Positions 6,254 through 59,570 of a DNA stretch of 64,000 bases are shown here, piece after piece. The stretch lies in NCBI GenBank assembly GCA_951406725.2, contig OX597815.1, positions 147,684,001-147,748,000 on the forward strand. The letters are read 5' to 3'. A model generated the notes under the pieces. The model was not told the origin of the DNA, made no database searches, and worked only from the letters and a program-made list of their open reading frames with translations. Position numbers and translations under genes: made by a program. This DNA comes from Octopus vulgaris (Eukaryota). Every line of letters begins with the position of its first letter. The stretch's first letter is position 1.

Positions 6254-7560
6254 GTTATTATTGTTGCTCTTCTTGTTGTTGTTGTTGTTGTTATTACTAT
6301 TACTATTACTTCTTCAATATTACTGAGTAGTGTTGTTTTGTCTCTGCAAACTATTTTTCATTGCACGAGTAATGAAAATATGACCTAAATCCATTTAGCT
6401 GATGAAGTATTGTAATTAATCCGCATGATTAAGTGAAAACATCAACATATGGCTCGATTAGCCGCTAGGTTCTCGGAAGATAATAAATATACTTCATGTA
6501 TATGTGATTAGACAGAAAAATATTGAAATTGCAATACTGACCAACTTTTTGATGGCTACGATAGTGGAATAGGGAACATAATATTTCCTTGCATATAATT
6601 TAAGGTATATAATTGGATTGAGATTTATTTCATTTTATTTACGTTCAGATTGTATACAAAACAATATTACCTTGTTAATCTAACACGTACAATTATGGAA
6701 AATACATATGATACCAGGAAAGCGATAACTAAGTGTTCTTCCTTTACATAAATGGCCACATTATCGAACGTATATTTTCTATAATATACTCTAAGATTGG
6801 ATATAAAATAAATTCGGTGGCTGTATTTATCAAATCTATCAAACACATGCGGGTTTCTGAATCGTGTCGACGAGGAAGTGCTATTGTTTATGTCGTTATG
6901 TTTAATTCTGTGTTACTTCTGACTATTATGGCGCATAATCAAAATTATTGGCCTACAAGAAACGTCACTGCTAGTTCTATTTCACAGCTTTATAAATATT
7001 AGTGAAATGCATAACCAATTAACGAATTAAATTATCGATTACTTCTCTAGTTATTTCACCAATCTATCAAGCAGCTGGTGTGTTAGTCTGTAAATTGTTC
7101 TTACTGTCTCCCCTTCTTAAAATTTATGAGCTATATGATCTATGAGAATGTGTGTTTCATGAGTGGGTGAAAGTCTGAGCAAGTGGACGGGCGAAATTGA
7201 GAGAGAATGATGGTTCTTTGAGAGAAAGAAAGTGTATTTTAAAAAAATGAGTTGGATAGCACAATAGTCACCGTCGCAATTTTTTATAATCATATTTCCA
7301 TTTAAAAGAGCTTGCACATCGAAAACAGAGAATGTAAGAAACCTTCAAACCAGCTGTACAAAAGCTAAGAAGAGGAAAACAGGAAAATATAAAACTAGAA
7401 AATTGCATACATCCCAGGAATTGGTTTCAAATTTTGGTAGTGCCAGGAAGTTTGAGGCAGTGGATAGGCCGACGACATCGAATCCTACGGTTTATGTATG
7501 TATGTATGTATGTATGTATGTTTGTATGTATGTATGTATGTATGTATGTATGTATGTATG

Positions 7561-7605
<45 letters not shown>

Positions 7606-7698
7606 GTATATATATGTAAAAGTGTGTGTATGTGTGTGTGTGTTTGTGTGTGTATAGTGTTGTACCTCGGTTTTTGAACAACTCTGATGGAATAAATG

Positions 7699-7738
<40 letters not shown>

Positions 7739-8118
7739 GGACGCGTCTGAAAGGATTGGAGACAAACACTTTCCTTTCTGGTCAATCTCTCATCAAGTTT
7801 TTCAAGTATCATTTGAAAAGGAAAGTGAGAGTACAGAGGCAAGTTTTGTCTAGCGAATGTTTCAAGGAAAGATGGGTGAATGTAACAAGGATGGCACGTA
7901 TGAATGACGAAGCCACCTTGAGCATAATCCTATGAACCCGCAAAATTTTAAACGAGTGACATTCAGTAACAATACCCTAGAGTAAGCATAATTTGGCAGC
8001 ATTACGGGGCAGCAATAGATAGGACGAATGCCACTCTTATTTGGACCCAGAAATCATCGTCTTCAGCTAGCTATATATTGCTTCTAACCAGGGCTGCCAC
8101 TATAATTTAGCAAATAGT

Positions 8119-8175
<57 letters not shown>

Positions 8176-8224
8176 GCATGCATTCATATACATATGTGTA
8201 TACAGATATATATATATACAAACA

Positions 8225-8281
<57 letters not shown>

Positions 8282-8282
<1 letters not shown>

Positions 8283-8510
8283 ATTGCAGTTGGAAGGTGT
8301 TTATAAGCCATTTAAGAAACACTCAAAACCGTTAGATTCACTTCAACATATAAATTTAATTTGTCAATATTTTTGTCGCTTTGAGAGCGCGACCTGTTCA
8401 ATGACAATGTGTTTCTTAAATGGCTTATAAACACCTTCCAAGCTGCAATTGTTTTCGTTCCAGCATGCGATCTTAGATCAAGTTACTCGCTTTGCAAGTA
8501 CATCTCCGTA
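8282..8510. mobile_element. Small fold-back element (about 41-bp inverted arms) between TA tracts, probable Penelope pLTR remnant
   Basis: 8282-8322 is the reverse complement of 8409-8450; the loop holds a degenerate hammerhead-like fold on the minus strand (8361-8407). Confidence 0.55.
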
Positions 8511-8591
<81 letters not shown>

Positions 8592-8641
8592 TATATGTAC
8601 AGATATATACACACACACACACATTTATATATATACATACA

Positions 8642-8687
<46 letters not shown>

Positions 8688-8759
8688 TATATATATACAT
8701 ACACATACACATACACACATACACACACACACATATATATATATGTAAATATTTATATA

Positions 8760-8834
<75 letters not shown>

Positions 8835-9237
8835 TGTGTGATAGGTAAGCAGTCGCCATCCGCATGGTATGCTCACTTACGGATATGGGTACATGCGTAC
8901 ATATATACATATATAAACACATATATCGCGAACTCACTGTTACATGCTCAGATGCAGTGCGAAGTTTTGTCAGTGAACTGTTCGCGGCTTCAAAGTGAAG
9001 ATAATGTTTTGACACAAATGAAATGTGTTCTTCAATGGGTTACAAACTAATTACATCCTGCAAAACCATTATTGACTACAGGACATTTTATACCATGACG
9101 ACAACGGTATCACATTTTGTATATGGCTGTACATCTGTCTGTGAGAGTATATAAATGTATGTGTGTTTCTATTTCTCTGTGTGTGTGTGTGTGTGTGTAT
9201 TTTCGTGTTAGGGACGTTATTACATCTGCACACACAC

Positions 9238-9282
<45 letters not shown>

Positions 9283-9478
9283 ACGTAGCGGTACGTTATT
9301 AACTACACACACACACATACACAGACATATACATATGTGACGATTGATATGCTTCAATACACGAACTTACATACATAATTTTGAAAAACAAATCCCAACA
9401 CGAAATATATATATATATATATTAGTGAATTGAAGAAATGGAGTTGAACGAAGATTGAACAGAAATCGTTTTATTGCA

Positions 9479-9558
9479 TTCTACACGTGTTTCGAAAGCC
9501 ACAATTTACCAAATTCCGATTGAATAAGGAGACCATATTGAGTCTTTCTCTTCAGGAA
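9479..9558 (-). ncRNA. Type I minimal hammerhead ribozyme
   Basis: Reverse-complement copy of 9710-9789 with an intact CTGAAGA / GAAA / GTA core. Confidence 0.75.
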
Positions 9559-9709
9559 GAAATAGGAAATCCGTACATGGGCACATGCGTACATATATAC
9601 ATATATAAACACATATATATCGCGAACTCACTGTTACATGGTCAGATGCAGTGCGAAGTTTTGTCAGTGAACTGTTCGCGGCTTCAAAGTGTTCGCGGCT
9701 TCCTATTTC

Positions 9710-9789
9710 TTCCTGAAGAGAAAGACACAATATGGTCTCCTTATTCAATCGGATTTTGGTAAATTGTGGCTTTCGAAACACGTGTAGAA
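9710..9789 (+). ncRNA. Type I minimal hammerhead ribozyme
   Basis: ttc-CTGAAGA-gaaagacacaat...attgtggctttc-GAAA-cacgtg-TA-gaa: stems I and II pair, stem III is palindromic, GUA cleavage triplet. Confidence 0.8.
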
Positions 9790-9999
9790 TGCAATAAAAC
9801 GATTTCTGTTCAATCTTCGTTCAACTCCATTTCTTCAATTCACTAATAATATTAAAATTCAATTATCCGCACCAACGCATGGTTGCAACACCATATGGTT
9901 GTACCTCCAACCGTGCTGTCTTCTGCTGTGATTTTTGCTACCAAGGTATCGGTTAAACTTTTGATTAATCTGCAATAAGATTATTCATCTTTCTATTTC

Positions 10000-10099
<100 letters not shown>

Positions 10100-12627
10100 T
10101 ATATATGGACAGAGAGAAAGAAAAAGTGTAAGGGAGATAGAGGGATAGATATAGATTGATGATCAGAGGTCCAATTGATGCTTCGGTATACCACGTTTTA
10201 CACAAACTTGGACACACACACGCACACACAAGCACTCACCAGCATACACATACACACACACACACGCATATATATATATATATACATATATATATATGAG
10301 TGTGTGTGTATGAGTATATCTATATCTATATCTATATTTCTATCGATCGATTTATGTATGTAAATTTCATATGGGCATCAAAAGAACATTTCACATTTAA
10401 GTAAAACTGTCGAACATATTCCAAAATATTTTACTACTACTTATATAAAACCACAGAGAAATCGAAAATTCTCGAGAGTAGTCACAATAAGTTCCATTCC
10501 GTTTTGAATTAAGAAAAAAGAAAGATATTATCAGAGTTTAAAGAAATGGGTAAAGGAACCTTCTAACATACTGGAATCTGTTATTCAGAAGATGAAGTGA
10601 TTTCCATGTTACTTCACTAATAATATTGACTATGTATATATATAAAAAAAAAACCTCAAAAAAGAGAAAGGAACTAACAAAAGAACAAATACAGTATTCC
10701 TATAAAAATATATAACACGGTCTATATCTGTTAATAGGACTTTTAGCTTCCACTTTGTTTAATATGTTTAACAAAATCAGTTTAGTGAAGGAAATAATAC
10801 ACTGGATGTTAAGTTTCAATGAAATCTATTTGAGATTGGTGTATTCATTCCAATTCACAATTATAGACATAAACACATATACACCCAGGCTCTTAATCAC
10901 AAAATAATCATACATACACAAAATCGTATTCAAGTGTCTTTGAGAGTGTGTCTGTGTACGTGCGTTTGTACGATTATAAATATATTCTTGTTTATGCTTA
11001 AATATACCACATATAATCTGATAGTTAAACGTTTTTTCTTGTAACGCTGTAGTTGTAAGGAATAGATTTTTTAAATTATCAATAATTACACAGCATTGCA
11101 TTTCATCATTCTGAAAGTCAACTGATAAACCTAATGTGTGCCCTTTTCACATGTTCAGATGAAATGAATGGGTTGGAATATTAGATTCTAGATTACGAAT
11201 GAAACGAGAATTAGTAACACTCTTGCTCAAGGAATTTTCAGCCTCAGATTTAACATGGAAGGTGAACTATGTATAAGGATGTGGAATGGTTAGCCTGGTC
11301 TGAGTAGCTCTTCATATTAAAAGGATTACTTCTCCTCTCAGCATTTAGTACTATTCATATTGTTTATTTCTAATAAGTGCAGAGAATTTCGTTATGCCAC
11401 TATGATATACTACCAAGTATATCAAAGGCTTATAAGACACTATTTTTTGTTATGAAATATTGTGATATATCAGTCCTGGCTCTAATTTCTATAGAAAATC
11501 TGTAGAGATAAATTTACAACGAAATCATATTATGTCATACAATATTATACCATTGGATCGCAGCCGAAATAGTGTAACAGGATAAACCATGTTTCTGCCT
11601 TGATTGAAATTTCAAGAGCAAATTTAAAATACAGTGTTTTGAAAAGTCGAACTAGCCAAAATAAATATTTATTAAGCCTGTGATCCTCCACAAGCTTTTT
11701 TTGTTTTTGCAAAATTCCAGTCTCAACGACAGAAATGTATGCATACTTGTGTCACATAATTAAAGATATACAACAATGAATCACACGCAACAATGTAAAA
11801 AAACTACAGAAAATATAGATTACTTTCTATGGGTTACTGGTTTCTTCAGCAGAGTACATTAAATGCTCGCACAGTTAATATTAACACTCATCTTGCAAAT
11901 AAATGGCAAGTATATTCTTTTGTTCTTTATGTCTCAGTGAAACAAGTAGTTATTAAGTTGGCTTAGAGGTTATTTAATGAATATTCTTCAAGGTTTATAT
12001 GGCATGCAAAATGTCTTCTGTCAGTGTGACAGATAATAAATTCCTCAAAGTACATTCTTTTCACAGCATAGGGACCTATAATTCGTCAATGAAAAGTAGG
12101 GTTTCTATTTTATCATTTTTATTCGTCGGCAATAATTTTCTCTTGTCAGTCTTTATAATACTAACTTAGTTGGGATGTTACTGGAATTTCCTTATACATT
12201 GTGTTGATAAAGATACAAATGGATGTCTTAATATAAGAGTAATATTTGTTAATCAATGATACGAGGTTAATTTCTACAAGGAATTGACTCCAGGGCCCTA
12301 TTACGTATTGCATAATTTTACGATATTGTCGTACTTCTACGACAGCTAGGGGTGAACAAATTTAGGCTCACAATTTCTTGTCACTGGTGAAACAACTCAT
12401 CAATTTTCCTTTTTGATGTATGCAATCATACATTACACAATTATATATATATACAGAGAGAGAGAGAGAGAGAGAGAGAACAATGTGCACGCACGCCACT
12501 ATATATATATATATATATATATATTATATCAAATTAGAGACAAAACCACTATTATGCAAATCAAACAAAGAAAGACTTAAGCCAATACATAAAATAATTT
12601 ACATAAATTAAAATTTAACATATGAAT

Positions 12628-12679
12628 AACCACTACGATCGTTTCGTGTCAGCACATCTTAGACATTCTTCAGGTGGTT
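12628..12679 (-). ncRNA. Type I minimal hammerhead ribozyme
   Basis: Minus strand reads aaccac-CTGAAGA-atgtc...gacac-GAAA-cgatcg-TA-gtggtt: 6-bp stem I, palindromic stem III. Confidence 0.85.
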
Positions 12680-12743
12680 TCAAAATCTTCTTAGCGAGTT
12701 TTAAATTAAGTTCATAATTTAAAACTCGCTAAGAAGGTTTTGA

Positions 12744-12795
12744 AACCACATGAAGAATGTCTAAGATGTGCTGACACGAAACGATCGTAGTGGTT
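12744..12795 (+). ncRNA. Hammerhead ribozyme copy with C3>A core mutation
   Basis: aaccac-ATGAAGA-...-GAAA-cgatcg-TA-gtggtt. Confidence 0.7.
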
Positions 12796-13010
12796 ATTCA
12801 TATGTTAAATTTTAATTTATATAAATTATTTTATGTATTGGCTTAAGTCTTTCTTTGTTTGATTTGCATAATAGTTGTTTTGTCTCTAATTTGATATAAT
12901 ATAATATTTTATTATAAAATTGGATTCAATCTTAAATCTGATTTTTCCTTGTAAATTTGGATTTATTCCCTAATATTTATTATTATTATTATATATATAT
13001 ATATACAACA

Positions 13011-13581
13011 TGGGACAAGAACGCAAAACATTCGGACAGCTAAGTGATAGAAAAAGGGACAGCAAAACATCCACATAGACGATACAAAGAAAACAAGAAG
13101 GGGTCATTCGAAGTCTTTGTTCTTCAGTCAAGTACCAGATTATCCTCGTAATTTCGGCTGATTAATCTTGAGATTGCTCCAATCTGGCCACCCGAAGGAA
13201 AAACTAAGCTAAGAGCATTAGATTCTTTGGAAGAAAACAGCTTATCTATACAAAAACAAAGGTTCATTTTCACACACGCTAGCTTAATTCAATGCGTCCT
13301 TAGTCGAAAGACACCTGTTAATATGTCCTGTTGTTATTAGTATTGTATTTTTTAATTGTATTTCTCCGTCTTTGTTTTTGTATACATTCGAAGCTTTTTT
13401 CCAAGGAAACTAATGCTCTTCGCTTAGTTTTTCCTTGAGGCTGGCCAGATTGGAGCAATCTCAAGAATAATCAGCCGTAATTGCGAGGATAATCTGGTGC
13501 TTGACTGAAAAAAAATAATTTCGAATGACCTGTCCTTGTTTTATTTGTATCGTCTATCTGGATGTTTGTGTTTTTGTCCCA
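13011..13581. mobile_element. Diverged fold-back element (arms about 13055-13261 and 13370-13581)
   Basis: cttgagattgctccaatctggcca and its reverse complement tggccagattggagcaatctcaag; flanked by TA/TC tracts. Confidence 0.65.
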
Positions 13582-13643
13582 TTCTCTCTCTCTCTCTCTC
13601 TCTCTGTATAAATATATATATATATATACACACAAACACACAC

Positions 13644-14140
13644 ATAAATTAGAAGCGGAAACCAAAACTATTAATTGAACAATTAAATAATTTAATCATT
13701 AAATGATAAATTCAATTCAAATTTTCCTATTTCATACAAAAAATATTTCATGAGATATTTAAGAAGGTATGTCGATCTGCTGAAATCTCATTATATTTAA
13801 ACGATATTTATTATTCCTGAAAAATTGTTTTTTATTATTGGAGTTCAAACAGCTGTAAGTTATGAGATGTATCATTTGTTTGCATAAAATATTAAAATTG
13901 AATTGAATTGAATTTATCATTTAATGATTAAACTATTTAATTATTCAAGTTATTGTTTAGGTTTCCATTTCTAATTTATATTTTTATATTGATAAACTCT
14001 ATGTTTATTTTATTTATTTACCTATTTGTTAAGAGCAATAGTTCATAACATTGTTATTCATATAGGTAAAAAAAAAACAAGTAAGTTCTTCGGATATTTA
14101 ATATCCCCTGAAGCTGGTTATTTAACACCTGGCTAAATTG
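13644..14140. mobile_element. Old AT-rich fold-back element (arms about 13644-13718 and 13900-13980)
   Basis: tttaatcattaaatgataaattcaattcaa versus ttgaattgaatttatcatttaatgattaaa; decayed CTGAAAA...cAAA-cagctg-TA near 13818-13857. Confidence 0.5.
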
Positions 14141-14141
14141 T

Positions 14142-14241
<100 letters not shown>

Positions 14242-14269
14242 TGATGGACTCTGTCGTCGGTTTCGACGC

Positions 14270-17190
14270 ATGACGCTTCGACAACGCACTCTTTCTTTGT
14301 CAGCCATAATGCTTACGTCGAATGTGACATTTAATCCGGTCAACAAGGTGCAAAGAAGGCCACAGATTTTGCAAGTATGACCACTACAGATCAGTGCATG
14401 TGATATATTTGCAGCCCATCTTATCATTTGCTTTGCACCCAAAACCTGTTAATGCAACTTGCAACAAAGTTTATCATACCATTTTGAGACAATAATTTCC
14501 ATTTTGTTCGTTCCAATGCTACTCACTCAAAGATGATTTGAGCCATCTTCTTCTCGAAGAGATTACTCTTCAGTTTTTCCTTATATCTGAGCTATGGTCG
14601 ACCAACATTCCTGTGCTCACTCTCAAGCTGGGTGTTTGGGTATTCTTTCGCCACACATTCTGACGATGTGGCCAGCCCAGCACAATTGTGATTATATGTG
14701 GAAGCTCTCAATTTCACCAATATTACGCTTGCTAAACAAGTCGGCTTTTAGAGACTTTGTCTGTTAGTGAATAATCGTAGCTTGCTTTCAGGCAGTCTTT
14801 GTGGAAAATGACTAGTTGGTTAACGAGTCGACTATAGGGTATCCACAATTCTGAGCTATACAAGATAGGAGTCAAGTTTGATGCTCTTTCATTCTATGGG
14901 CGATTATGGAGTTTTCCAAATGCATTGGTTGCCTTTGCAAGATGGTGGACGATTTCATCACCAGGGAAGCACTCAAATTCACTTTATTTCTAAGATATGT
15001 AAATGACTTTACAAAACGTAGGCTTTTCCCATCAACCTGTATAGGAGTGGGGGGAAAATTGTGAACCGGTAGCCTCTGATTGACGCCTCGAAGCTGTTTA
15101 GGAGTAAGGCAAATTTGGTTGATTACTTTCGTCTTCTTTATGCTGATGGTCAAACCAAAGGCTTTACATGCAGCAGAAAAACTGGTCCAGAAGTTCCTGA
15201 GCTTCCTCTACGGAGGTCGCTACTAGTGCAGCATCATCTGTAAAAAGCAGATTACGAATGATATTGGTCTTTGTATGTCAACAAAAGCATACCTCTGCAT
15301 CACTGACAAGAAGATTGCAAATAAAATAAGGGCCATAACACAACCTTGCTTCGTGTCGCTTGTATCGTCGAAGGAAGCCGAATATTCCCCACTGGACAAG
15401 CCAGCAACCTTCATTCCCACATGAAAAGAGATGATAACATTCAACATATTGTCCGGTATACTAAGGTTGTTCAGAACTTTCCATATTGCTTGCTGGTTAA
15501 CAGCGTCGAAGTCTTTAGTACGGTCAGCGAATATGAATAACAACTGTTGATTTTTCTCATGTACCTTTTCCATGACCATTCTGAGGTAAAAGATAATTTC
15601 GATAGTGCAACAACCATAGCGAAATCCGCACTGAGATTCTGGATAGATATAATTTACAAAGTGTTTGATGATTTTGTCAAGAATGAGTCGAGCAAGGATC
15701 TAACCAGCAATAGACAGAAGCGACATTCCACGATAATTATCACAGACACTTCTGTCGCCTTTTTTCTTATACAGATGTTGAATTGAGGTATCCTTGAAGT
15801 CCTGTGGTACACAGCCTACCTTTCAAATGTTTATGAAGAGATCATGCAGTTTCTTAAATTGCTTCTGCCCACTATGTCTGTAGATTTCAGAAGGGATAGC
15901 ATCACTGCAAGGTAATTTACCAGAAGAAATCTGCTTAATAAAGTTTACCACTTCCAGGAAGGTCGGCTCCAGAGATAGTTCCGATATTTCAGTATGCTGT
16001 TAAACTGACATTATGTCGCAATCATTAGTGAATGAAGGGCTTCAAAATGATCATTATGTTAGATTTGTCAGTCAGCAGTGTCGTTCTATTCGATGACAAA
16101 TAGCAGTAACAACGTGCACTTCAGGACAATACACTTTCTCCAAGCCATCATAAAAGGCTTTAGAATCATTTCTGTTTCCAATTTCTTGGTGTTTAGAAGC
16201 CCTGAAAGACCACCAAGCCTCCATCACCTGTTTCAGAGCATGTTGTACTTGGCCTCTGCATTTCTTGTAGGCATTCTCTTTTAAGGATGAACTCTTATAA
16301 TTTATCCATCTTTTGGAATAGCTGTGCATTTTATCTATCAACTGTTGAACATCTGCTTTGTTATCGTTGAACCAATCTGGAATTTTACAAGCAGGAAGTC
16401 CAAGGACCCCTACAGATGCAGAGTGCGTTCCATCATGCAGAAACTTCCTAAATCCTTCTATGTCATCACTGATATCAACAGTGTCGAGTGTAGTATACTA
16501 GTTTGATAGAAAGCTCAGCCTGATTTTCAGTAGTTTTCAAGGACAGAACATTAATGCGCTTAAGAACTGACGAATTTTGTAATTTTCTGTTTCAGATGGA
16601 ACGTAGCCTTACTACGGAGAAGAGAATGGTCGGAGAAACTGAAGATGTTATGAAAGGAACGTGTCATATTAAAGTCCATAATATCTCGATTTTTAGTAAT
16701 AACATAATCTCTGAGATGTCAATTCTTAGATCTAGGATGCACCAAGGTCGTCTTGCAAGAATTTCGCTTTTGAAAAAAAGGTATTTGTTATGCTTAGACT
16801 GCATTCCATGCAGATGGAGAGCATACTATGGCGACCAAGTCCTCCCCATGCCTGATAGTCAGTACCAACACGCGTGTTAAAATCACTCATAAGAATTAGT
16901 TTACTCCTATAGTGAGGACCGGAGATGACATCACGGAGCTGGTTGTAAAATTTTTCCTTTTCCTGCTCAGTGCTGGTCACGGTTGGAGCATAGCAACTGA
17001 CAACCGTAGCACAAGTGTTGTGATCAAGTTCCAGTGTTAGTGTCATGATGCGATCAGAGATACATTCGAGTAGAGAAAGGATGGATCTAGCTATTTCTGT
17101 TTTGATAGCAAAACCATCACCAGTGTGGTGTGGCTCTTCTTCATTTCTTCCACACCAGAAACATATGTATCCACCTTTACTATTCATGTA
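14270..17190 (-). pseudogene. Decayed RTE-clade LINE (APE endonuclease + RT)
   Basis: ORF fragments GYICFWCG..TGDGFAIK, SDRIMTL, VSCYAPT, EKFY (APE); FADRTKDFDAVN, KQGCVMALILF (RT); C-terminal CKIC knuckle; many stops. Confidence 0.85.
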
Positions 17191-17836
17191 GCTGCGATGC
17201 TCCCAACAGTATAACTATTTTTGGAGAGATTTGACTTTCAAAGTAGTAGGTCAAGGAACCACATTAAATCTCAATCGATGGTTCGATTTCTCACCTATTT
17301 CACCGCTGTTAATTACTTAATCAATATATAATTGTTAAACAGTCACAACGCATATCTAGTGCATTATAACTAATTTCCTTAAGATTGAATGTAATCCATT
17401 TACCTGAACGCAGCAAATTTAAGCATCCTGTACCATATACCTGCTATCAAGCACAACACAATGGGCTGCACATCATGAAAATATGCTTGTTATCATACGC
17501 AATGTGCTTATATTTCGAGATGTGACATGCATGAATTCTCTCGGTATACTGGACAATGGTGGTCATTGGTGGCGAATAGCTTTAATCTACATTTACATTT
17601 ATTTTGATTTTAATGGATAATTTTCACATCGAGAGTGTTTATATTGGTAACATTATTGTTGATATATTCAGATGTATGCAGATTAATCTAAGTCTCAATA
17701 AATGACTCTACTGATATAATATAATCCAAGCTGAATAAATCCCTCCGTCTCAAGTATAAGGAAAGTAGCTTGATGTATATGACAGATGTATTAGTATTTG
17801 ACGTGACGTCAATGGATAATATATACATATATATAA

Positions 17837-17907
<71 letters not shown>

Positions 17908-18003
17908 CATATATATATATATATACATATATATATACATATATTTACACATATGTATATATATTTATATACATATATATGTATATATATATAAATGTGT
18001 GTG

Positions 18004-18047
<44 letters not shown>

Positions 18048-18873
18048 TACACACACAAACAAACACACACGCATATATATATATATTTAATGACTCCAGC
18101 TCTGAACGGCGTGTATAAGTTTGTCTGATACTCTCTTTTTGTAGCTGCATGTGTTGCTTGAAAGTTAATATGAAAGATGTACTTCTGATACCTCCCTTTG
18201 TTATAAAAAAGCACTGAGTAACAAGGGAAATCATGTAACAATGTAATATTATGGACGCGTATTTTAGCAAGAACTTTTTTCAAATATATATTTACATATA
18301 CACACACACACATACATTGCTATATATATGTAGGTGTAAATGTGTATGTATATATGTATGTATATGTATATATATATATATATATCTTTTAAGAACTTAG
18401 CCGCCATATATATTAATCTCTGTCTCCATATATATATATATATATATATATATCCACATGTGCATACACTCGTATATAAATATCATACATATACAAATAT
18501 GTATTCGTGTTGATGTTACATCTCATATTCTGAAATCCCAAGTTATGTTTAAAATACCGTTCGAAATAAAAGTAATTTTTTATGTTATTTTATATGTCCT
18601 TCTAACAGTAATCAAGAAGTGTCACACAACTTACGAAAATACTTGATGGTTTTCTTTCTACTTAATATTACTTCATAAATTACCGAATGTTCGAAATATT
18701 TTTCGAGAAAAAACTAATTCACTTCGATGTTTGAATTTAATTATCTTACGTTATTTGGCTGCGTATTGGCATATACGGTCGGCAAATACAAATTTTCCAT
18801 GTCCTCTGACTTGCATTCCACCGAAGTGAGTTTTATCGTGTATTCATTCAATGTCATTGTATTAAGTATACAA

Positions 18874-18932
<59 letters not shown>

Positions 18933-19399
18933 ACTGGGTCGTTATTCTGACTTCATCCCGATCTACTTATTCCTGCCTTTACATCTCTAGGTTCAAGAAT
19001 AATTTAAGTTCCTGTTTATGAAAGAATAGGAGTATCATTTGTTGTTTAATTTTCTTCAAGGGTATCGATAGCTTATCAGAAAGTAAAATCTAGCCATAGG
19101 CATATGAATAATTTGCAGATTGGAAACATCGATGGACAGACCAATACACAACACAGTATGCCTCAATGTAGTATAGAAATCGAAGACCAGTTGATCAAAG
19201 AAGTTTTAACTTTCACAAAGAAGTCAACTAAAATTTAGATTTAATGGAAGAAATTAAATGAGGTACATGGAACGAATCCCTTAACTTCAATTTTATCAAT
19301 AATGTGAAGTGGGAATTGAAGGCTACTGTAGTAGCCGTACTAGCCTCTAATCATGTGGAAAGGTGAGTTTCACAATACTGACGATATGTCATACTCTTC

Positions 19400-20390
19400 C
19401 TTTCAGAAAACATCTGCTGAAGTCATATGGATTTGAAGCCACCGTTTGCGATTAACTGAATGTTCTTCACAAAGGCTACCATAAATTATATGACCAGGAA
19501 TATTTATGTAATTTATACACTGTATACGGCCAGAGATGTTCATTCCATGTGCAATGTTTTTGGTTCGTACAATAAAAAATATGCAAATTTGTTGTTTTTC
19601 TGATTAAAAAGTTAATAATTACTCCCCTTGAATAAGACTGCAGCAATGGCAACACAATTCTATGCTGTTGTATTTAGTTTTCGTTTCAGAAACCTCAGTC
19701 AAAAACTCTTTCAAAAATGAAAAAAGGAAAACTTGTATTAATCTCTATAACCTCGTTACTAACCAAGTTGTATTGAGATGATGCCTCGGATATAGCTGAT
19801 AATTCCTTGCACTAAAGTTGAGATCTCGATAGCGATACTGAAATCAAGAAATGCATTTTCCTGGATTTTCAGCTTAGAAAGAAAACTATAATGAATTTGT
19901 AGAGAATGCTAGCTGCATATTATTTCTCCTAATATACATGTGTTGATGAGATTGTATTGTCGTTATGCTGACGTAATATTTATTATTCTCTATAAAGTTT
20001 GACTGGGCAGCTGAAATATCTCCATAGAAACCATATCATAGCTCCATGAGCAGAAATTAGTTTTTTCTTACTTCGTAAAGCATAGCTGCCAGAAATAGGA
20101 AAAAAAAAAAAAAAAGTTGGAGCAAATGACGAAGTGAGTTTGCACCTGCAGCTCGTTGAAGATTGTTTGGATTGGTTCCTTACAGAAGAATTAATTAATA
20201 CAAAAGTGTTAAGTTGTTGCATTTCGAGGAGCGCTGCATTTGGACAGTGACAGGTAATCCATAATGCAACAGTTGGAACAATGTCACTATCCTTTGCTTT
20301 AGTAAATTTTAAGCAAATCAAAGAAGATACAATAACTAGAAATGAACATGTATGCCAGGATTGGACGGTAATTGAAATTATAAAATACAA
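19400..20390 (+). pseudogene. Possible highly decayed MULE/Mutator transposase remnant
   Basis: Broken-frame motifs NLYTVYG / FIPCAMFL / EIKKCIF..RKK / TRNEHVCQDW loosely follow MULE QLYTIHG..PC.F.L..I.GC.FH..RTNN.CE.W. Confidence 0.3.
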
Positions 20391-22368
20391 TGATATAGTT
20401 CGGACACAAAAACAAGCTTCTCTTTCTTATTTCAGATCTAAATGTTTCCGTTCGAAATATTTAAAGGCGTATGTAGATAAACGGACACGGACACGCACAC
20501 ACACGCATACATACACACATGCAAATATATACATGTATACATACTTCTATGTGTGTTCTTGTGTGTACCTGCGAAAATAGTGATGAGGATAATGTTATCA
20601 TCTAATACCATTCATGTTTGCCTGTACGGCAATTTGCCAGGCGTGGGATACAAACCATTTGCCCAATCGTTTCAACAATTAACCACAGAAAAATAAAGTA
20701 AGCCGTGTTTAGTAATCGATTAGGAGGTGTTTTAATTTACAAGTTTAAACACCTGTGTTATCTATATATATCTACAAAGCTCAGAGTTCTGATGCGTCAC
20801 GAACCGTCGTCGCTTTGCGATCCTTCAGGGTTCCCAGTATTTCTCGATTGTTGATACATAGATACAAGAACATTGCATAGCAAACACAGTCTGGATTGAA
20901 AAAATGACAGACTCTGCAAACTTAATCCGTTCACTTATGCTTAACCTGAAACGTACAGAATTTCAGAAATAAATAAATGTTATATTATTTATTAGAATTG
21001 CTGAAAATAATATATTGCACGAAGTGATTATTTATGATTTTCGTCTACAGTGTATTCTCTCTAATAGTACATATAACCTCTCATACTTAAAGTTGTTGGG
21101 AAAATTAGTTGTATTCTTTATAGTAAGACATAAACGCAGAGAAGTTTCTGTGGTTAAGAAGATTGCACGACATTCATATGGTTCCTGCTTCAGTCACACA
21201 TAATCCGAGAGCGACAACGCATTGTGAGAGAATTTCGTGAGCGGAAACATTGTCGGTGCCCATCGTATGTATGTATGAATGTATTATGTATGTATATATG
21301 TACATATATATATATACATATATATATAAACATATATATACATATATGTATGTATATGCATGTATAGGTATATATATATATCAATGGTGGTGTCTCAGCA
21401 TAGCAGCAGCCTATAAGGCTGAAGCATATAAAAAAAGAATATCTATATATATAAAGTTAGATAGATTGTTAGATAGATAGAAAGACAGACAGACAGAATA
21501 TTGCTGCCGTTCAATGAGAGTTCTTAATCAGGTAGCCATACATTCACCTGCTAACAAACTTACAGTAATATAATATCGTTACGCTGAGCTATTTAGATTC
21601 ATGTATATTTAAGCAGACAGTACGAAAGCAGCGTACAAAAGATGATGTGCAGTCTGAACCTGAGTAATATATTTCGAAATATCATCTTGAATATTCGAAG
21701 TATAATCATATATAGGATATATTCATCGAGTTTAAACGGAAATTCTATTTACATACTAAATGTACTTTTTGCAATATAAATTAATCGTTTCTAGTAGGCT
21801 TCATGCAAATGTAGGCCAATTATTGTATATATATATATTCATAGATATCACACAGCTAGTGGCCAACTAAACTACAGCGTTTAATAAGTAGAATATCCAG
21901 CTCTAACATTCGAATACCTAATGAGAATAATAATCCTATCCATCAATGTCCTTGTAAGGTTGCAGTTCACATGTAGTTCAACTACAAGGAGACATATACG
22001 TTCTTCAATAGGTCAACTCCTACTGCCACTCACGTTCTGCGATCTACTACCTATAAGAGAAAGCATAATAGAAAAATTCATTTATTTTTTGCATAAATTT
22101 ACATATTACATTGGGTAAGTATGATTAAAATTTCAGCTTGAAATCACATGATTAAACATTTGACTTGAAAGAAATTCACCAATTTAATTAAATGCAGTAA
22201 CGATATATTAAATGTCAGAGTTTCATAGCGTGGACTTATAATTAATATGAATTTCTTGAAAATGAGAAATATTAAATAAACGCAATGTATATTGCTACTA
22301 CAATTTAGATAGAAGGCATCAGCACTACACAATAACATAAAGACAACTCTTATATATATATACATATA

Positions 22369-22770
22369 GGCGTAGAAGTGGCTGTGTGGTAAGTCGTTTG
22401 CTTACCAACCACATGGTTCCGGGTTCATTCCTACTGCGTGGCAACTTGGGCAAGTGTACTCTACTATAACCTCGGGCCGTCCAAAGACTTGTGAGTTGAT
22501 TTGGTAGACGGAAACTGAAAGAAGCCCGTCGTATATATGTATACATATATATGTATATTTCTGTTACTGTGTTTGCCCCCTAAACATCGCTTGACAACAG
22601 ATGCTGGTGTATTTACATCCCTGTAACTTAGCGACTCAGCAAGAAAGACCGATGGAATAAGTACTAGGCATCCAAAGAATAAGCCCCGGGGCCGATGTGA
22701 CGACTAAAGGCGGTGCTCCAGCATGGCCACTGCAAAATGACTGAATCAAGGAAAAGTGTAAAAGAGTAAA
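22369..22770 (+). mobile_element. tRNA-derived SINE family A (CORE-like, internal microsatellite)
   Basis: A box tggctgtgtggtaag, B box ggttcattcc, cttgggcaagtg core, 3' ggcggtgctccagcatggcc, gtaaaaga tail. Confidence 0.9.
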
Positions 22771-22782
22771 ACAATATATATT

Positions 22783-22941
22783 GGAGTGGATGTGTGGTAA
22801 GTTGCTTGCTTACCAACCACATGGTTCCGGATTCAGTCCCTCTGCGTGGCACCTTGGGCAAGTGTCTTCTACTATCGCATCGGGCCCAACAAAGCCTTGA
22901 GAGTGGAATTGGTAGAAGGAAACTGAAAGAAGCCCGTCGTA

Positions 22942-22974
<33 letters not shown>

Positions 22975-23195
22975 TTGCGTGCGTGTTTGTGTGTCTATGT
23001 TTGTCCCCCTAGCATTGCTTGACAACCGATGCTGGTGTGTTTATGTCCCCGTCACTTAGCGGTTCGGCTAAATTGACCGATAGAATAAGTACTGGGCTTA
23101 CAAAGAATAAGTCCCGGGGTCGATTTGCTCGATTACAGGTGGTGCTCCAGCATGGCCGCAGTCAAATAACTGAAACAAGTAAAAGAGTAAAATAG
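22783..23195 (+). mobile_element. SINE family A, tandem second copy
   Basis: Same head, core and tail as 22369-22770. Confidence 0.9.
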
Positions 23196-23197
23196 TA

Positions 23198-23314
<117 letters not shown>

Positions 23315-23400
23315 CATATATATATATATTTCAACAATTGAGGGTAAAATTAATTAGCAATTAATCTAATCAATTTCACCAAGTATTCAGTATGTAAAGG

Positions 23401-23499
<99 letters not shown>

Positions 23500-23561
23500 T
23501 TTATATATATATATATGTATATAGTGGAACCGCAAAGGATGGAACCAAACAGCGCACACGG

Positions 23562-23957
23562 GTGTGTATGTTCTACCTGAGAGGTTCCTGCTGGCATGGA
23601 AAGGAAGGTGCAGGCTGCCGCTTTGCACATCGGGGACCCTGCCACAGAGACACGAGGCAGATGGACAAACCATCAACACAAAGAAAAGGGATGGACCACG
23701 CACCACCTGCACCAAAGCGGAGGTACGCAGATGTTGTGCGCGCCACAAACAGCCAACATGATGTTGTCGAAAGAGCAGCTGCTGAGCAACAATCTTTTTT
23801 GTGCATGGCACTAAATATTGTACAGCAGCTGACCTGGCTTCATCAAACCCAAGCCCGCAGGTGGGACTACCCACTATATAACAGACCACCACAGCAAACA
23901 GACACAGGATGGACACCGCCGGCAACAACGTACACCTCACCTCGATACTCCTACTGA
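23562..23957 (+). CDS. LINE ORF1 C-terminal remnant with a CCCH-type zinc finger
   Basis: [22 protein letters not shown] (C-x7-C-x8-C-x3-H); overlaps ORF2 by 49 nt. Confidence 0.6.
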
Positions 23958-26905
23958 ACATCAGAGGACTGCAAACACTCAGTAACAGGACAAAGATCCC
24001 GTTCCTGAGAGACTTTGTTGCATGCAATCAAGCCATATGCATAGCACTTACAGAAACGCACCTGAAACCGGACATAGCAGATGCGGAGTTACACATACCA
24101 CAGTATGCTGTACTACGGACCGACAGGAAAGAAAGGAGTCATGGAGGTGTTGCTATGTACATCCGTGAGGACCTCACACCCCAGGTCCTCTTGTCATACT
24201 CAAACTCGGTGTGTGACACACTAATTGTACATATTAGGCAACTTGATGTAGTTGTGTGTGCTACATATCGCCCTCCAGATGCCCCAAGCCATGTGGGCAA
24301 GATTGAAGACTGCCTTATAAAAATAGAAGAAATTCTAACCACATTAGAACAACACATAGGTGTGCTTCTTATGGGAGACTTCAATCTGCCCAATGTCAGA
24401 TGGCCCGAGGGCCTTTCTCTCCCAGGAATGACAAGATGTGAACGAGGACAGGCGAGGTCCCTCCTGAACGTCAACAACACCCTGTACATGGAGCAGGTAA
24501 TACTCCAACCAACCAGGGCAGGTAACACACTGGATCCCTGCTTCACAAATGACATGGATCTCATCCATAACGTGAAAGTGACACCGACACTACTCTCGGA
24601 TCACAACATGATAGAGCTGACCATGTACGGGCCAAAAGAGAGCACGGACATGCAGCCTACAAGAAACCCTCAAAATCTTTCCAGCTTGAACTACCATAAG
24701 GCAAACTGGAAACAAATTGAGAAAGAGATCCTCAAACAAAACTGGCCTAAATGTCTCTCCTCGCCAGACATCGACGTGAAACTTCAACAATTCATGTCTG
24801 TAATGCAAGCCATATGCTACAAATGTGTCCCAGAGAGAAAGGCCACTGTACACAAGAACAAAATCCCCAGAGAGAGGAAAATTTTAATGAGACGGCGTAC
24901 GAAATTTTCAAATCGCCTAAACAAACAGATTGAAAGCAGTGAAAAGTCCCGCCTAAAAATAAAACTGTTGGAAATCGAAAAATGTCTGCAACTCTCCCAT
25001 GAAAAAGAAAGAGCAGACAAAGAAGCCTGGGCTATAGAAAACATAAAATCTAACCCCAGAGCTTTCTACAGGTATGCCAAAGAAACAGCTACAGTGCACT
25101 GTAGAATAGGGCCACTCCTCGAAAAGGATGGCACACTTACAGGAAAACCAATGAGGGTAAGTGAAATACTGAATGAGCAATTCAAGAGTGTTTTCACTCC
25201 ACCCCTTGGGCATCTCCAAATCACCAATCCAACTGACTTTTTTACCACTGCAGATATAAAATCAGAGGCGGCGACGATAGATTACATCGATATAAAGGAA
25301 GACGATGTAACGAAGGCTATAGATGAAATGAAAACAGACTCAGCTACTGGCCCCGATGGATTCCCGGCAATCCTCCTAAAAGCATGTAAGAGAGTCCTAG
25401 CAAGACCACTGCAGTTCCTCTTTCAGAGCTTCCTTGCAGCTGGCAAACTTCCAGGAAAACTGAAGGAAGGTAAAATATGCCCCATTCATAAAGGAGGTAG
25501 CAGAGCGGAAGCCAAGAACTATAGACCTATCTCTCTGACCTCACACATCAGCAAGGTCATGGAACGAATAGTCAGAAGGAAGCTGATCACCTTCCTTGAA
25601 GAGAATGACTTGCTGCCCGACACCCAACATGGTTTCCGACCAGGGAGAAGCTGTTTAACTCAGCTCCTACAACACTATGACTGGGTGCTGAAACGGCTGC
25701 TCAACCACTCAAATGTGGAAGTGATATATCTCGACTTTGCAAAGGCCTTTGATAAAGTCGATCATGGAATGATATGTCACAAACTGCGTGATCTCAACAT
25801 AGTTGGAAAACTGGGAGAATGGCTTCATGACTTTCTGAAGGATAGAAGTCAGGTGGTAGTAGCCAATGGGGCCACCTCCATTAACACACAAATAGTGAGC
25901 GGTGTTCCGCAGGGCACTGTTCTGGGACCACTACTGTTCATAATGGCCCTCTCAGACATGCCCTCAGCCACGCAGAGAGCCACGATCACAAGTTATGCAG
26001 ATGATACAAAAGTTTCACAGGCAATACAGAACCCTGAGGACACTAAACACCTGCAATGTGAGCTGGACGAAATATACAAGTGGGCTGAAAAGAATAGCAT
26101 GCAGTTCAATGCTGGAAAGTTTCAAGCTTTATACTATCAGCATGCAAAACTGAATGCAATACCCAATGAATACACTGGACCCGGAGGGATTGCAATCCCA
26201 GAGGCACAATCAGTGCGTGACCTGGGTATTCACATGAGTGATGACGCGACCTTTCATGTACATGTTGCTAAACTGACAATGAAATGTAGACGGCTGGCTG
26301 GATGGATTCTTAGAACCTTTAGAACAAGAGAACAAGAAACCATGATGGTCCTCTGGAAGACACTTGTCCTAAGCCACTTTGACTATTGCTCTCAGCTATG
26401 GTCACCATCCAGTGTCAAGTTGATCACAGAACTTGAGGCGATCCAACGAAGCTACACAAAGAAGATAGCCTCTATGCAGAATGTAAGCTACTGGGAAAGA
26501 CTCAAGAGATTAAAATTATATTCCCTGGAGCGTAGGCGGGAAATATATGCCATAATATACATCTGGAAGATCCTGGAGGGAAGTGTCCTGAACTTTGGCA
26601 TCGAGAGTTACGCAAATGCCAGAACTGGGCGCCACTGCGTGGTGCCTAGGACTCCAAACCTGCCATCAAGATGTAGGACAAGATACTGTGATAGCCTGGG
26701 CTTCCGAGGCCCACAGCTCTTCAATATCCTCCCGAAGAACCTGAGAGACCTGCATGGGATGGATACAGATGTCTTTAAAATGAAGCTGGATCTCCTCCTG
26801 TCAGGTGTCCCAGATGAACCAACTTCACGGCAGGAGGGGCAGATGAGGGCAGCTGCATCGAACTCTCTCATGCACCAAATATCAGCTGCTAGAAAGCCTC
26901 CATGA
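23909..26905 (+). CDS. LINE ORF2: AP endonuclease + reverse transcriptase, uninterrupted 998 aa
   Basis: APE motifs LNIRGL, LTETHL, YRPP, GDFN, SDH; RT motifs [37 protein letters not shown]; CR1-type C-terminus [16 protein letters not shown]. Confidence 0.97.
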
Positions 26906-27183
26906 AGTGAAACCAAGTAGCAACAAAAAATGGCGGTGCCCCAGCATGGCCACAGCTCATAAGCTGAAACTAGAATCAATCAATCAATCAATCAATCATA
27001 TGTATGTATTGTGTGTGCGTCTTTATGGGTAACGTTTGTGTGTGAGCGTGTGTGTATGTTTGTAAAAACTTATTTTATAAGGGTCCATTCTATTATGTAC
27101 CCACAGTCACATCCACGCACAGGAAAATCGTATTTATGCTCCCATATTTACATATATTTAAATAAAATATATATGCTTGCTTC

Positions 27184-27237
<54 letters not shown>

Positions 27238-27320
27238 GGTCCCGGGTTGATTCGGGGTTAACCACAGTAAATAAGGTACTCAATACATAGCAGAGTAAAA
27301 TTAATTTATTATATAGAAGG

Positions 27321-27371
27321 AGCTTCTACAGGACTAGAACTGTTTCATTCAAGAGAAATCTTCAGGAAGCT
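27321..27371 (-). ncRNA. Type I hammerhead ribozyme
   Basis: Reverse complement of 29390-29440. Confidence 0.8.
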
Positions 27372-27641
27372 AGTTAACAAGAATTGTATTGGCATTTATA
27401 CATTTAGGCAGGTTTATAGGGGTGGTGGTGGGGGACTTTTTGGGGGTAGGCATAGTGCAAAAAAATCATACTTGGGGGAGTGGTCAAGGTGTCAGTGGTA
27501 AATTAGATAGAAGAATAAATAAAAGAATAAAAAAATAAAAAAATATAAAAATATATAGAAGAATAGAGTTTTAGGTAAATAAGGAAATTCTCAATACACA
27601 CACATATACATACACACATACATACACACACACCCATATAA

Positions 27642-27676
<35 letters not shown>

Positions 27677-27956
27677 TATACATACATATATCTACATATA
27701 TATATATATATACATATACATATACATACATACACATATACATGCATATACATATACACACACACATGTATATATACACACACACGACCACACATACACA
27801 TACACACAAAAAAATATATACATACACACACATACACATACTCACATACACACACATATCCACATACACACATGCACACACAACACACAAGTCCCTATAT
27901 ACTCATATATACATATACACATATATGTATGCATACACACACACATATACATATAT

Positions 27957-28002
<46 letters not shown>

Positions 28003-28527
28003 GTGTACCCATTCATACACATATGGATGTATACACACACACACACATACATATATATACACATACATACATACATATGTGTACCTATTCATACCTACAC
28101 ATACACACATATATACATACAATTACAAACCCATTCCCTAATTTTAATTTTATTATCTTCATTTATTACTTTTGTTATCTTTGACCGCTGGTCACAAACA
28201 TCTTGGCTAGTCCCTTTTATCTTTCTACTTGAGCACAAACACTCACTCACGCACGCACACTCATTAGCACGCACACACACTCTCATTCGTACACTCATAC
28301 ACATACACGCACGCACGCGTTATATTCATACATACATACATCTACATACATACACGTATATACACATACATACGCGTACCTACAGATTCATGTCTACAAT
28401 CTTAGAAGACTAGTCTATACATATACACCAAATATATATACACACATACATATACACCTACATACAAATACATACATACATATATATACACTCATATATA
28501 TATATACATACACATATACACATACAC

Positions 28528-28560
<33 letters not shown>

Positions 28561-28763
28561 CACACATATATACATATATATACATATACATATATATATA
28601 CACACATCCGCATACATACATACATACATACACCCATACATACATACATATATACACACATATGTGTAGGTATGAATAGGTACACATATGTATGTATGTA
28701 TGTGTATATATATGTATGTGTGTGTGTGTGTATACATACATATGTGTGTATGAATGGGTACAC

Positions 28764-28813
<50 letters not shown>

Positions 28814-29037
28814 ATGTGTGTGTGTGTATGCATACATATATGTGTATATGTATATATGAGTATATAGGGACTTGTGTGTTGTGTGTGCATGTGTGTATGT
28901 GGATATGTGTGTGTATGTGAGTATGTGTATGTGTATGTATGTATATATTTTTGTGTGCGTATGTGTATGTGTGGTCGTGTGTGTGTATATATACATGTGT
29001 GTGTGTATATGTATATGCATGTATATGTGTATGTATG

Positions 29038-29076
<39 letters not shown>

Positions 29077-29095
29077 GTAGATATATGTATGTATA

Positions 29096-29126
<31 letters not shown>

Positions 29127-29389
29127 TTATATGGGTGTGTGTGTATGTATGTGTGTATGTATATGTGTGTGTGTTGAGAATTTCCTTATTTACCTAAAAC
29201 TCTATTCTTCTATATATTTTTATATTTTTTAATTTTTTTATTCTTTTATTTATTCTTCTATCTAATTTACCACTGACTCCTTGACCACTCCCCCAAGTAT
29301 GATTTTTTTGCACTATGCCTACCCCCAAAAAGTCCCCCCCCCTATAAACCTGCCTAAATGTATAAATGCCAATACAATTCTTGTTAACT

Positions 29390-29440
29390 AGCTTCCTGAA
29401 GATTTCTCTTGAATGAAACAGTTCTAGTCCTGTAGAAGCT
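29390..29440 (+). ncRNA. Type I hammerhead ribozyme
   Basis: agcttc-CTGAAGA-tttctcttgaat-GAAA-cag ttctagtc ctg-TA-gaagct: 6-bp stem I, weak stem II, 3-bp stem III. Confidence 0.8.
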
Positions 29441-29455
29441 CCTTCTATATAATAA

Positions 29456-29488
<33 letters not shown>

Positions 29489-32365: not shown

Positions 32366-32526
32366 CCTCCTTCTACCCTTCTTTCCTGAGCGTCCAATAA
32401 TACTTTATTTGTCCCACATCCTCGCGTTGTTGTGATCTTTTGCTTTTTTGTGTTTTCTTGTTTAGATTATATATATATATATATATATATATATGAGTGA
32501 GAATGAAGCAACAAGAATGGATAGGT

Positions 32527-32617
32527 TTTTAGTACAATCGTTTCATACAAGGACAGGTTTTATTAAAAGTTGCAAAAATTACAGCATATAAACGTGTCCC
32601 GTACTCATCAGCTAAAA
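32527..32617 (-). ncRNA. Hammerhead ribozyme in the 3' pLTR
   Basis: Reverse complement of 36560-36650. Confidence 0.82.
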
Positions 32618-36045: not shown

Positions 36046-36393
36046 AATATTGATTTCTTCCCCTTAGATATGAGGGAGTGATTCATGGCAAATATTAGTG
36101 ATTTGTTGAGTAAGATAGGGGAAATGCTAGAGTAATAACTATTAATATCGAACTGAATAAAGGACAGACTACTAGTATTAGTTAGAGAGTTAAACCATTT
36201 TAGAACTTCATCGGTACTTAGCCATAGGTTTAAGGGGAGAAGAGGGGTTATTTGGGGTAGAACAGTATCCAATAGATTTACTAAGTCGGCCAATGTCCGA
36301 CTTAGTTGGACAGATCAGCCTTACCGAAGGGTTTTCCAAGAAGTTCTTTTTGTGGTATTTAAGGTTGATTCTGGGCTCACACGGTTTAAGTGG
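36036..36393 (-). pseudogene. Frameshifted N-terminal part of the Penelope RT
   Basis: LKYHKKNFLENPSVRLICPTKSDIGRLSK, then LWLSTDEVLKWF and FIQFDINSYYSSI; frame changes near 36280 and 36060. Confidence 0.8.
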
Positions 36394-36559
36394 CTCCTCT
36401 GTGATGCTATTAAGACTTTTTTAAAATTCTGTGATAAGACCGTACATCATCTTTAAAGAACTTTAATGAACTTTTGAAATCTGTTTATGTTACTTAATTA
36501 TCTACATTACTTCATGAGTATAGCCTCAACCACTAGGATGTCTAGAGAACTCACATGTA

Positions 36560-36797: not shown

Positions 36798-36855
<58 letters not shown>

Positions 36856-59563: not shown

Positions 59564-59570
59564 AATAAGA

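Follow-up and report, generated by a model that had tools for sequence, protein, structure and literature searches.

Background

Head-to-head Penelope-like elements (PLEs), host DNA lying between their pseudo-LTRs (pLTRs), and templated insertions at the junctions of L1 and other LINE elements are already known. The accessible portions of two reports give a one-sided tail of 30-40 bp, 5' truncation and an inverted copy as hallmarks of PLEs (PMC8557442, PMC3846280). The origin of PLE inverted repeats has been called unresolved (PMC8557442), and self-priming has been proposed for them (PMC3846280). In biochemical work, as far as its accessible text describes it, a purified PLE protein cleaved AT-rich DNA and carried out synthesis from both strands, starting at two sites, one at each end of the tail, on uncleaved RNA (PMC11167929). 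Dual hammerhead motifs 100-700 bp apart on opposite strands have been reported from Schistosoma, according to the available part of the source (PMC4209133).

Copies of nearby DNA are known from other insertion and repair systems, which we cite from the parts of the reports that are accessible. Templated insertions at L1 were seen in 22 cases in about 3,600 insertions, were shorter than 250 bp, and usually derived from DNA no more than 15 bp from the site (10.1101/2024.08.27.596794). The zebrafish element ZfL2-2 acquires extra 5' nucleotides derived from its flank (PMC4245944), and resection of up to 10 kb has been invoked at breaks made by L1 (10.1101/2024.12.14.628481). In polymerase theta (Pol theta) end joining, synthesis primed by one end on the resected strand of the other goes through aborted rounds and gives templated insertions in direct repeat; scars are typically 3-30 bp, with insertions of up to 157 bp (PMC7165422).

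Here we describe an inverted PLE in a 64-kb stretch of Octopus vulgaris DNA (hereafter, the window). In the accessible literature we found no inner junction of a PLE whose captured DNA had been followed back to a local source. We regard the locus as a variant of these known kinds, distinguished by the combination of a templated insertion with a PLE inner junction and by the distance to the source.

Results and discussion

Structure of the element

Read from its letters, the element consists of two 5'-truncated PLE pLTRs with a minimal hammerhead, placed head-to-head in a (TA)n run (Table 1). The arms match over 149 nt each (9420-9568 and 9700-9848) with two differences, at 9727 and 9754, and the inner end of the left arm exceeds that of the right by 6 nt. 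Family sequence private to one arm thus comprises 9569-9574 on the left and 9849-10002 on the right. The 3' ends of both arms face outward into (TA)n runs, and other copies of the family likewise end on (TA)n. Both edges of the element sit in (TA)n, and no empty site appears in the contig alignment, which began to the right of the left flank's repeats. The arrangement is that of an inverted, 5'-truncated, head-to-head PLE in an AT-rich, microsatellite target.

Table 1. Positions of the element, its flanks and its junctions in the window
Feature	Positions	Strand	Basis
Seven nucleotides whose reverse complement is the left arm inner end, 9569-9575; candidate snap-back site	8878-8884	+	7-mer search, duplex prediction
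Spacer source: TA-rich head and older-repeat remnant	8885-8997	+	pairwise alignment
Degenerate older dispersed repeat, extending beyond the copied segment	8927-9035		folding, likeness to 8323-8408, contig depth
(TA)n target run, left side	9405-9422		sequence; element edge ambiguous inside run
Left arm, 5'-truncated PLE pLTR with its outer end at the short family terminus	9420-9574	-	arm comparison, contig loose ends
Minimal type I hammerhead motif, left arm, stem II 7/9 pairs	9479-9558	-	motif scan
Left junction patch, identical to 8889-8895	9573-9579	+	overlaps arm by 2-3 nt, long copy by 3 nt
Long copy of 8885-8997	9577-9691	+	pairwise alignment
Right junction patch, identical to 8979-8991	9690-9702	+	2-nt overlap with long copy, 3-nt overlap with right arm
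Right arm, 5'-truncated PLE pLTR	9700-9848	+	arm comparison, contig depth
Minimal type I hammerhead motif, right arm, cleavage triplet 9784-9786	9710-9789	+	motif scan
One-sided tail, family sequence beyond the inverted repeat	9849-10002	+	contig depth; right edge placed at (AT)n start
(TA)n target run, right side	10003-10054		sequence

Contigs from three runs and raw reads from one (4 of 24 runs) were aligned to 9285-10000; in the contig alignment, the left flank and the spacer's TA-rich head were masked as repeats. The numbers of matching contigs (1142, 342 and 927 in the three runs) are those of a dispersed multi-copy family. In the raw-read run, X21, which carries the same species label, a single read of 12.9 million matched 9285-10000, a result at odds with the contig depths and with a high-copy family; this run yields neither a copy number nor a junction.

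Contigs have loose ends behind 9574 (X2) and behind 9845/9852 (X3, X2). Three X2 contigs among those listed track the left arm up to 9574 and then diverge. Other family copies stop at 9845-9852 and continue as (TA)n, which is the same terminus as the outer end of the left arm. Summed depth is high without a break over 9700-10000, and contigs match up to 10000. Because of this unbroken depth, we conclude that the right arm probably continues for about 150 nt as family sequence to the (AT)n at 10003. Depth is also continuous over 9848, but the best contig there has only 24 letters leftward of that position, fewer than the 31 that the alignment rule asks for. The first-pass annotation had closed the element at 9847; that boundary has to be moved to about 10002, to include the tail of about 150 nt, and family sequence of the left arm reaches 9574.

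Both arms carry letters that are in the minority in the family at 9740 and 9769. Since these letters are common to both, the arms appear to derive from one template or source copy, or alternatively the shared letters could reflect conversion between arms. The truncated copy has no open reading frame over 9700-10002, and an autonomous partner, which for an EN+ PLE would encode a reverse transcriptase and a GIY-YIG endonuclease, is absent from the 64-kb window. The frame at 34084-36063 is that of another PLE family.

Hammerhead motifs

A hammerhead motif with core and three stems is present in both arms. The motif of the right arm has the conserved core, a stem I of 3 bp, a stem II with 8 of 9 possible pairs and a palindromic 8-nt stem III. 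A relaxed scan returned five hammerhead motifs in the window, every one in inverted arms; shuffled sequences gave 2 in 20. Rfam yielded no matches at gathering score over the window and recognised no hammerhead in the arms, and its low-score matches to miRNA-type hairpins (E<=10) were dismissed as chance. The hammerhead motif is not the minimum-energy fold of the arms (z +1.38 and +1.06), as may be expected by analogy with dimeric or protein-assisted forms, and self-cleavage is putative. Truncation of the arms at the ribozyme cut was considered and rejected, because the cleavage triplet lies inside both arms.

Origin of the spacer

The annotation had proposed that the DNA between the arms duplicates nearby upstream DNA, and alignment bears this out. 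The spacer, 9577-9691, matches 8885-8997 in the same orientation with 96.5% identity (111 of 115 columns; E ~1e-49 against the window). The two differ by substitutions at 9582/8890 and 9641/8947 and by one additional TA unit. Within the 64 kb, 8885-8997 is the sole non-simple match to the spacer. The copied length is 113 nt, and the distance from template to insertion is 423-535 bp. Local capture of flank DNA is supported by the direction of copying and by the differing centres of other family copies, both described below.

The direction of copying can be read from an older repeat. Likeness to 8323-8408 spans 8967-9035 at the source (score 49, reached by none of 300 shuffles); in the spacer it ends at 9689 (score 34, reached by 1 of 300 shuffles). 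Because the likeness extends to 9035 at the upstream locus but stops at the junction in the spacer, the alignments identify 8885-8997 as the original and the spacer as its copy. The same observation, that the older repeat continues past the upstream copy and not past the spacer, led us to reject the interpretation of 8885-8997 and 9577-9691 as a long target-site duplication. Substitutions are alike in arms (2/149) and spacer (2/113), with Fisher p=1.0 in a test that has almost no power; the divergence of arms and spacer is compatible, weakly, with a single event.

Summed contig depth is 7,000-27,000 over 9645-9692 and 485-1245 over 9621-9644. On account of the former value, we take 9645-9692 to be a medium-copy dispersed repeat. 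The possibility, raised in the annotation, that the spacer is a high-copy repeat accordingly holds for this right-hand part, as a medium-copy repeat, and is very improbable as an explanation of the whole match. The quasi-palindrome that had been noted in the copied segment exists at about 8927-8986, although its folding is no more stable than that of shuffled sequences (z -1.16 and -0.60), and we infer that it is a feature of the older medium-copy repeat itself. A spacer hairpin acting as a special structure was discarded for the same lack of folding stability. A small fold-back at 8282-8510, with 42-nt arms, an 86-nt centre and an extension of about 60 nt, has a centre related to the old repeat of the copied segment.

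Junction patchwork

The anatomy of the centre, its patchwork and its overlaps are evident on letter-by-letter comparison. The centre can be rebuilt from three pieces of the flank (8889-8895, 8885-8997 and 8979-8991) with zero unexplained bases. Joins overlap by 2-3 nt at the left arm, by 3 and 2 nt between pieces, and by 3 nt at the right arm. The 7-nt left patch matches 14 sites in the window, counting both strands, and is weak evidence alone. On the right, the micro-duplication that the annotation had placed at the arm junction is indeed present, as a 13-mer that starts at 9673 and again at 9690; it derives from 8979, and the window has no further occurrence.

The site at 8878-8884 directly adjoins the copied segment, and its 7-mer is single-copy on each strand of the 64 kb. 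In a permissive sliding test of abutting complementarity, 312 of 63600 positions pass (about 0.5% chance). For the family-supported 9565-9574, this is the best predicted duplex site within 7420-9410 (-7.5 kcal/mol, compared with -5.8 kcal/mol at the next distinct site). The snap-back pairing is within the minimum-energy fold at 20 C, with an ensemble probability of only 2-3%. This complementarity was noticed post hoc, and we treat the modelled pairing as a lead, not a result.

Other family copies and inverted structures

Summed depth is 20,000-890,000 in the arms and lower by one to three orders of magnitude in the spacer. Six arm-to-arm joints occur among the contigs listed, two with 2 and 12 letters between the arms and four of unspecified interval; such joints are insecure. 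Judging from these contigs, the spacer is not family consensus, and other copies have different or near-empty centres. The alternative that the spacer is an internal part of the consensus, which the annotation had named as a potential refutation, is contradicted by these centres and by the drop in depth from arms to spacer. Pattern scans for family copies in metagenome, viral and prokaryote collections gave nothing.

Local capture is seen in one of six inverted structures of the window. The spacers of the structures at 8282, 12515, 13043, 27235 and 32492 have no non-simple match outside themselves in the window. This count of six omits 83% inverted pairs at 54.3-57.1 kb, which are dispersed, and microsatellite pairs, which are simple. 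The suggestion that such elements are a route to local sequence duplication thus has one case in its favour, at a frequency of one in six here. All five inverted structures whose edges were inspected have one arm on (TA)n and the other with an extension of 70-155 nt that is followed by (TA)n.

A near-perfect fold-back at 12515-12990 has arms of about 190 nt (the pair spans 12515-12907), a centre of about 6 nt and a one-sided extension of about 90 nt; its hammerhead core is intact only in the left arm. An older inverted repeat at 13043-13593 has arms of about 200 nt (83-86%) and a 108-nt centre without a match elsewhere in the window. At 27235-29457, 800-nt arms that are 95% alike and are largely a mosaic of TA and CA microsatellites flank a 557-nt centre, with a 70-nt left extension and (TA)n on both sides; the mosaic may be element or captured host DNA, and a hammerhead-like core seen by eye was not returned by scans.

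The window is rich in microsatellites and appears to hold other retroelements. An uninterrupted 1007-aa frame at 23882-26905 looks like a non-LTR retrotransposon endonuclease-RT protein, presumably CR1/L2-like. Fragmented frames at 14872-17214 and 59569-63122 resemble non-LTR elements, which we take to be RTE-like and R4/Dong-like. A large PLE of another family at 32492-36800 has the same layout, with a one-sided extension of about 115 nt, (TA)n on both sides, and hammerhead arms that are 98% alike, with CTGATGA cores at 32611 (minus strand) and 36566 (plus strand). Its 659-aa minus-strand frame (34084-36063) has RT-like and GIY-YIG-like regions split by a long Asn-rich stretch, which recalls the N-rich inserts of Adineta PLEs as presented in the accessible part of their description (PMC3846280). 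For the neighbouring ORF, neither Pfam nor PDB gave a match; the best protein match to an ORF near the element is a named protein of Octopus sinensis, at 85% identity, which points to an octopus genome.

A model for formation of the element

We think it somewhat more likely than not that the locus arose by double-primed PLE insertion, with repair-type microhomology bridging on the left flank at the time of insertion. In this model, a single PLE would have inserted into (TA)n, with both DNA ends priming reverse transcription on element RNA. The left arm cDNA would start at the short terminus of the family, and the cDNA of right arm and tail about 150 nt further 3'; both would halt just upstream of the hammerhead. 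Bridging would then be needed because the two cDNA 3' ends are not complementary, and several rounds of synthesis on the left flank, each primed by microhomology, would join them.

The geometry we favour has the left flank resected over more than 500 nt, which would expose the top strand as a template for direct copying by the right cDNA and as a snap-back strand for the left cDNA. The right cDNA would prime at 8989-8991, copy 10 nt, slip back and copy the segment down to 8885. A second slip-back would be followed by annealing to the left cDNA end, possibly held at 8878-8884. Between source and insertion, (GT)n and (CA)n runs at 9179-9340 form a long hairpin in the predicted top-strand ssDNA fold, which could bring the template nearer the insertion. 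Double priming, resection, the strand of synthesis, the snap-back and the enzyme are all steps that we infer from the product. The junctions are equally readable as top-strand synthesis, and a Pol theta-type host enzyme seems somewhat likelier than the RT as the bridging enzyme.

The model is favoured by the outer end of the left arm, which coincides with a terminus that recurs in the family next to (TA)n, and by the layout common to the five inverted structures with inspected edges. Since each arm has family sequence that the other lacks, neither is a plain fold-back copy, and simple fold-back copying of one arm was rejected as the sole cause. The private sequences also speak against self-priming, a model built on palindromic junctions. 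Against the bridging step stands the copied length of 113 nt at 423-535 bp, which exceeds typical Pol theta scars and L1 templated insertions. In a bolder version, head-to-head PLE repeats would form at double-strand breaks with deep resection, each end of the break priming one cDNA, and not through self-priming on an antisense template. The junction described here would then preserve the synaptic intermediate, in which one cDNA snapped back at 8878-8884 and closed a loop of about 700 nt while the other copied part of this loop as far as the anchor. This version is tentative, and we consider it less likely than not. Should it be true and such centres recur among the many octopus copies, the centres would map resection tracts and open PLE end-joining to direct tests, and PLEs would be a steady source of short displaced duplications.

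Alternative explanations

The product would be identical if, after double priming, the PLE RT had jumped from RNA to local DNA or to a nascent transcript of 8885-8997. As far as the accessible parts of the sources go, several points favour this reading: L1 templated insertions have been proposed to arise when growing cDNA dissociates from its RNA and anneals to DNA close by (10.1101/2024.08.27.596794), template jumps have been proposed for PLE captures (PMC3846280), and 113 nt is long for Pol theta (PMC7165422). However, slip-back patches at both ends and overlaps of 2-3 nt are the traces of aborted end-joining rounds in the portion available of a Pol theta account (PMC7165422), the flank-derived extra nucleotides of zebrafish LINEs vary with the host cell, according to the accessible text (PMC4245944), and the sequence shows no splice or poly(A) mark of an RNA template. 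We consider such a jump unlikely. The template switching onto local DNA or RNA that the annotation had suggested is upheld as to local capture; a role for the RT is possible, and host microhomology synthesis fits the four joins at least as well. It is still less likely that a near-perfect palindrome was inserted whose centre broke later, by hairpin or cruciform cleavage, and was filled from the flank. Long palindromes are unstable, the arms would pair stably (-191 kcal/mol as DNA), and nearly spacer-less centres occur in other copies (2 and 12 letters; about 6 nt at 12515-12907). Divergence between spacer and source is, however, no less than that between the arms, a weak point, and later repair needs a second event besides resection across the whole left arm, a reach that our preferred model of bridging at insertion also has.

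Two further explanations concern the assembly and the repeat content. It is very improbable that an assembler or a chimeric read placed a copy of the upstream segment between repeat arms. Among the 24 records listed of 2434, none bridges either spacer junction. One X1 contig of 301 nt, at depth 49, is an exact match to 9626-9691 and then extends for 200 letters at variance with the arm. By its length, this contig would reach the GT run beyond the source, and it may represent the source locus, an uninserted individual or a simplified graph. It carries the letter of the spacer at 9641, which is therefore no one-off error, and says nothing on the junctions. Yet three places distinguish the spacer from its source and two distinguish the arms from each other, and both junctions have ordered slip-back patches with microhomology; misassembly is unlikely. 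Scarcely credible is the view that the spacer is ordinary family interior, or an unrelated copy of a common repeat with an incidental upstream match. The depths that mark a dispersed repeat within the spacer (7,000-27,000, and up to 485-1245 beside it) would suit this view, but depth is lower in the spacer than in the arms by orders of magnitude, family contigs part from the window sequence at 9574, and the six joints listed have other centres. In addition, the copy spans the join between TA-rich head and old repeat at 96.5%, and the other relative in the window is far looser.

Double priming with bridging on the flank remains our preferred account. The locus is a single genomic scar with no evident function and small impact, and it is of value as a pattern for surveying inner junctions across the genome.

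Comparison with known systems

The statements about published systems in this section apply to the accessible portions of the reports. The octopus motif resembles the minimal hammerheads of PLEs (PMC4209133) in its long helix II, short helix I and palindromic helix III suited to dimers. It differs in that helix I is 4-5 bp there and 3 bp here, and in its long loop II region, with 55 nt between the core halves. A MITE or fold-back DNA transposon was rejected, since the ends are asymmetric (one has the tail) and inner truncation points and centres vary between copies.

As in Pol theta-mediated end joining (TMEJ) and SD-MMEJ, the insert is a direct-repeat copy from the opposite end, identical to the flank, with microhomologies of 2-3 nt, signs of aborted rounds and an AT-rich setting (PMC7165422). 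The copy is longer and far more distant than expected, at 113 nt and 423-535 bp, where 3-30 bp near the break would be typical, and the ends joined are cDNAs (PMC7165422). Because of this length and distance, it would work like a Pol theta insertion but as an atypical member. L1 twin priming likewise places two primed cDNAs head-to-head and copies in non-element templates; its arms, when overlapping, overlap by a median of 22 bp, compared with 149 nt here, and its RT is of another class (10.1101/2024.08.27.596794).

Among PLEs, captures by Adineta vaga pLTRs also enclose non-element DNA, but they involve whole genes or stretches of 0.9-1.5 kb, the enclosing pLTRs are direct, and the text available names no adjacent source (PMC3846280). 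The octopus capture is of 113 nt, at a head-to-head junction, from a source 0.4-0.5 kb away. The inverted-pLTR PLEs (PMC8557442, PMC3846280, PMC11167929) are among the closest, with their head-to-head arrangement of 5'-truncated copies, AT-rich or microsatellite target and pLTR hammerhead, and with a tail on one side that the octopus copy probably shares. They have tails of 30-40 bp (PMC8557442, PMC3846280), in contrast to about 150 nt here, and in Adineta the inner junction is a palindrome or an overlap (PMC3846280), whereas the octopus copy has flank-derived DNA at this point and no ORF. Extension from two starts on uncleaved RNA (PMC11167929) would account for two outward-pointing cDNAs, one of them tailed and both running through the ribozyme site. 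Host DNA between arms with private sequences fits such two-end priming, with repair-type joining, better than it fits fold-back.
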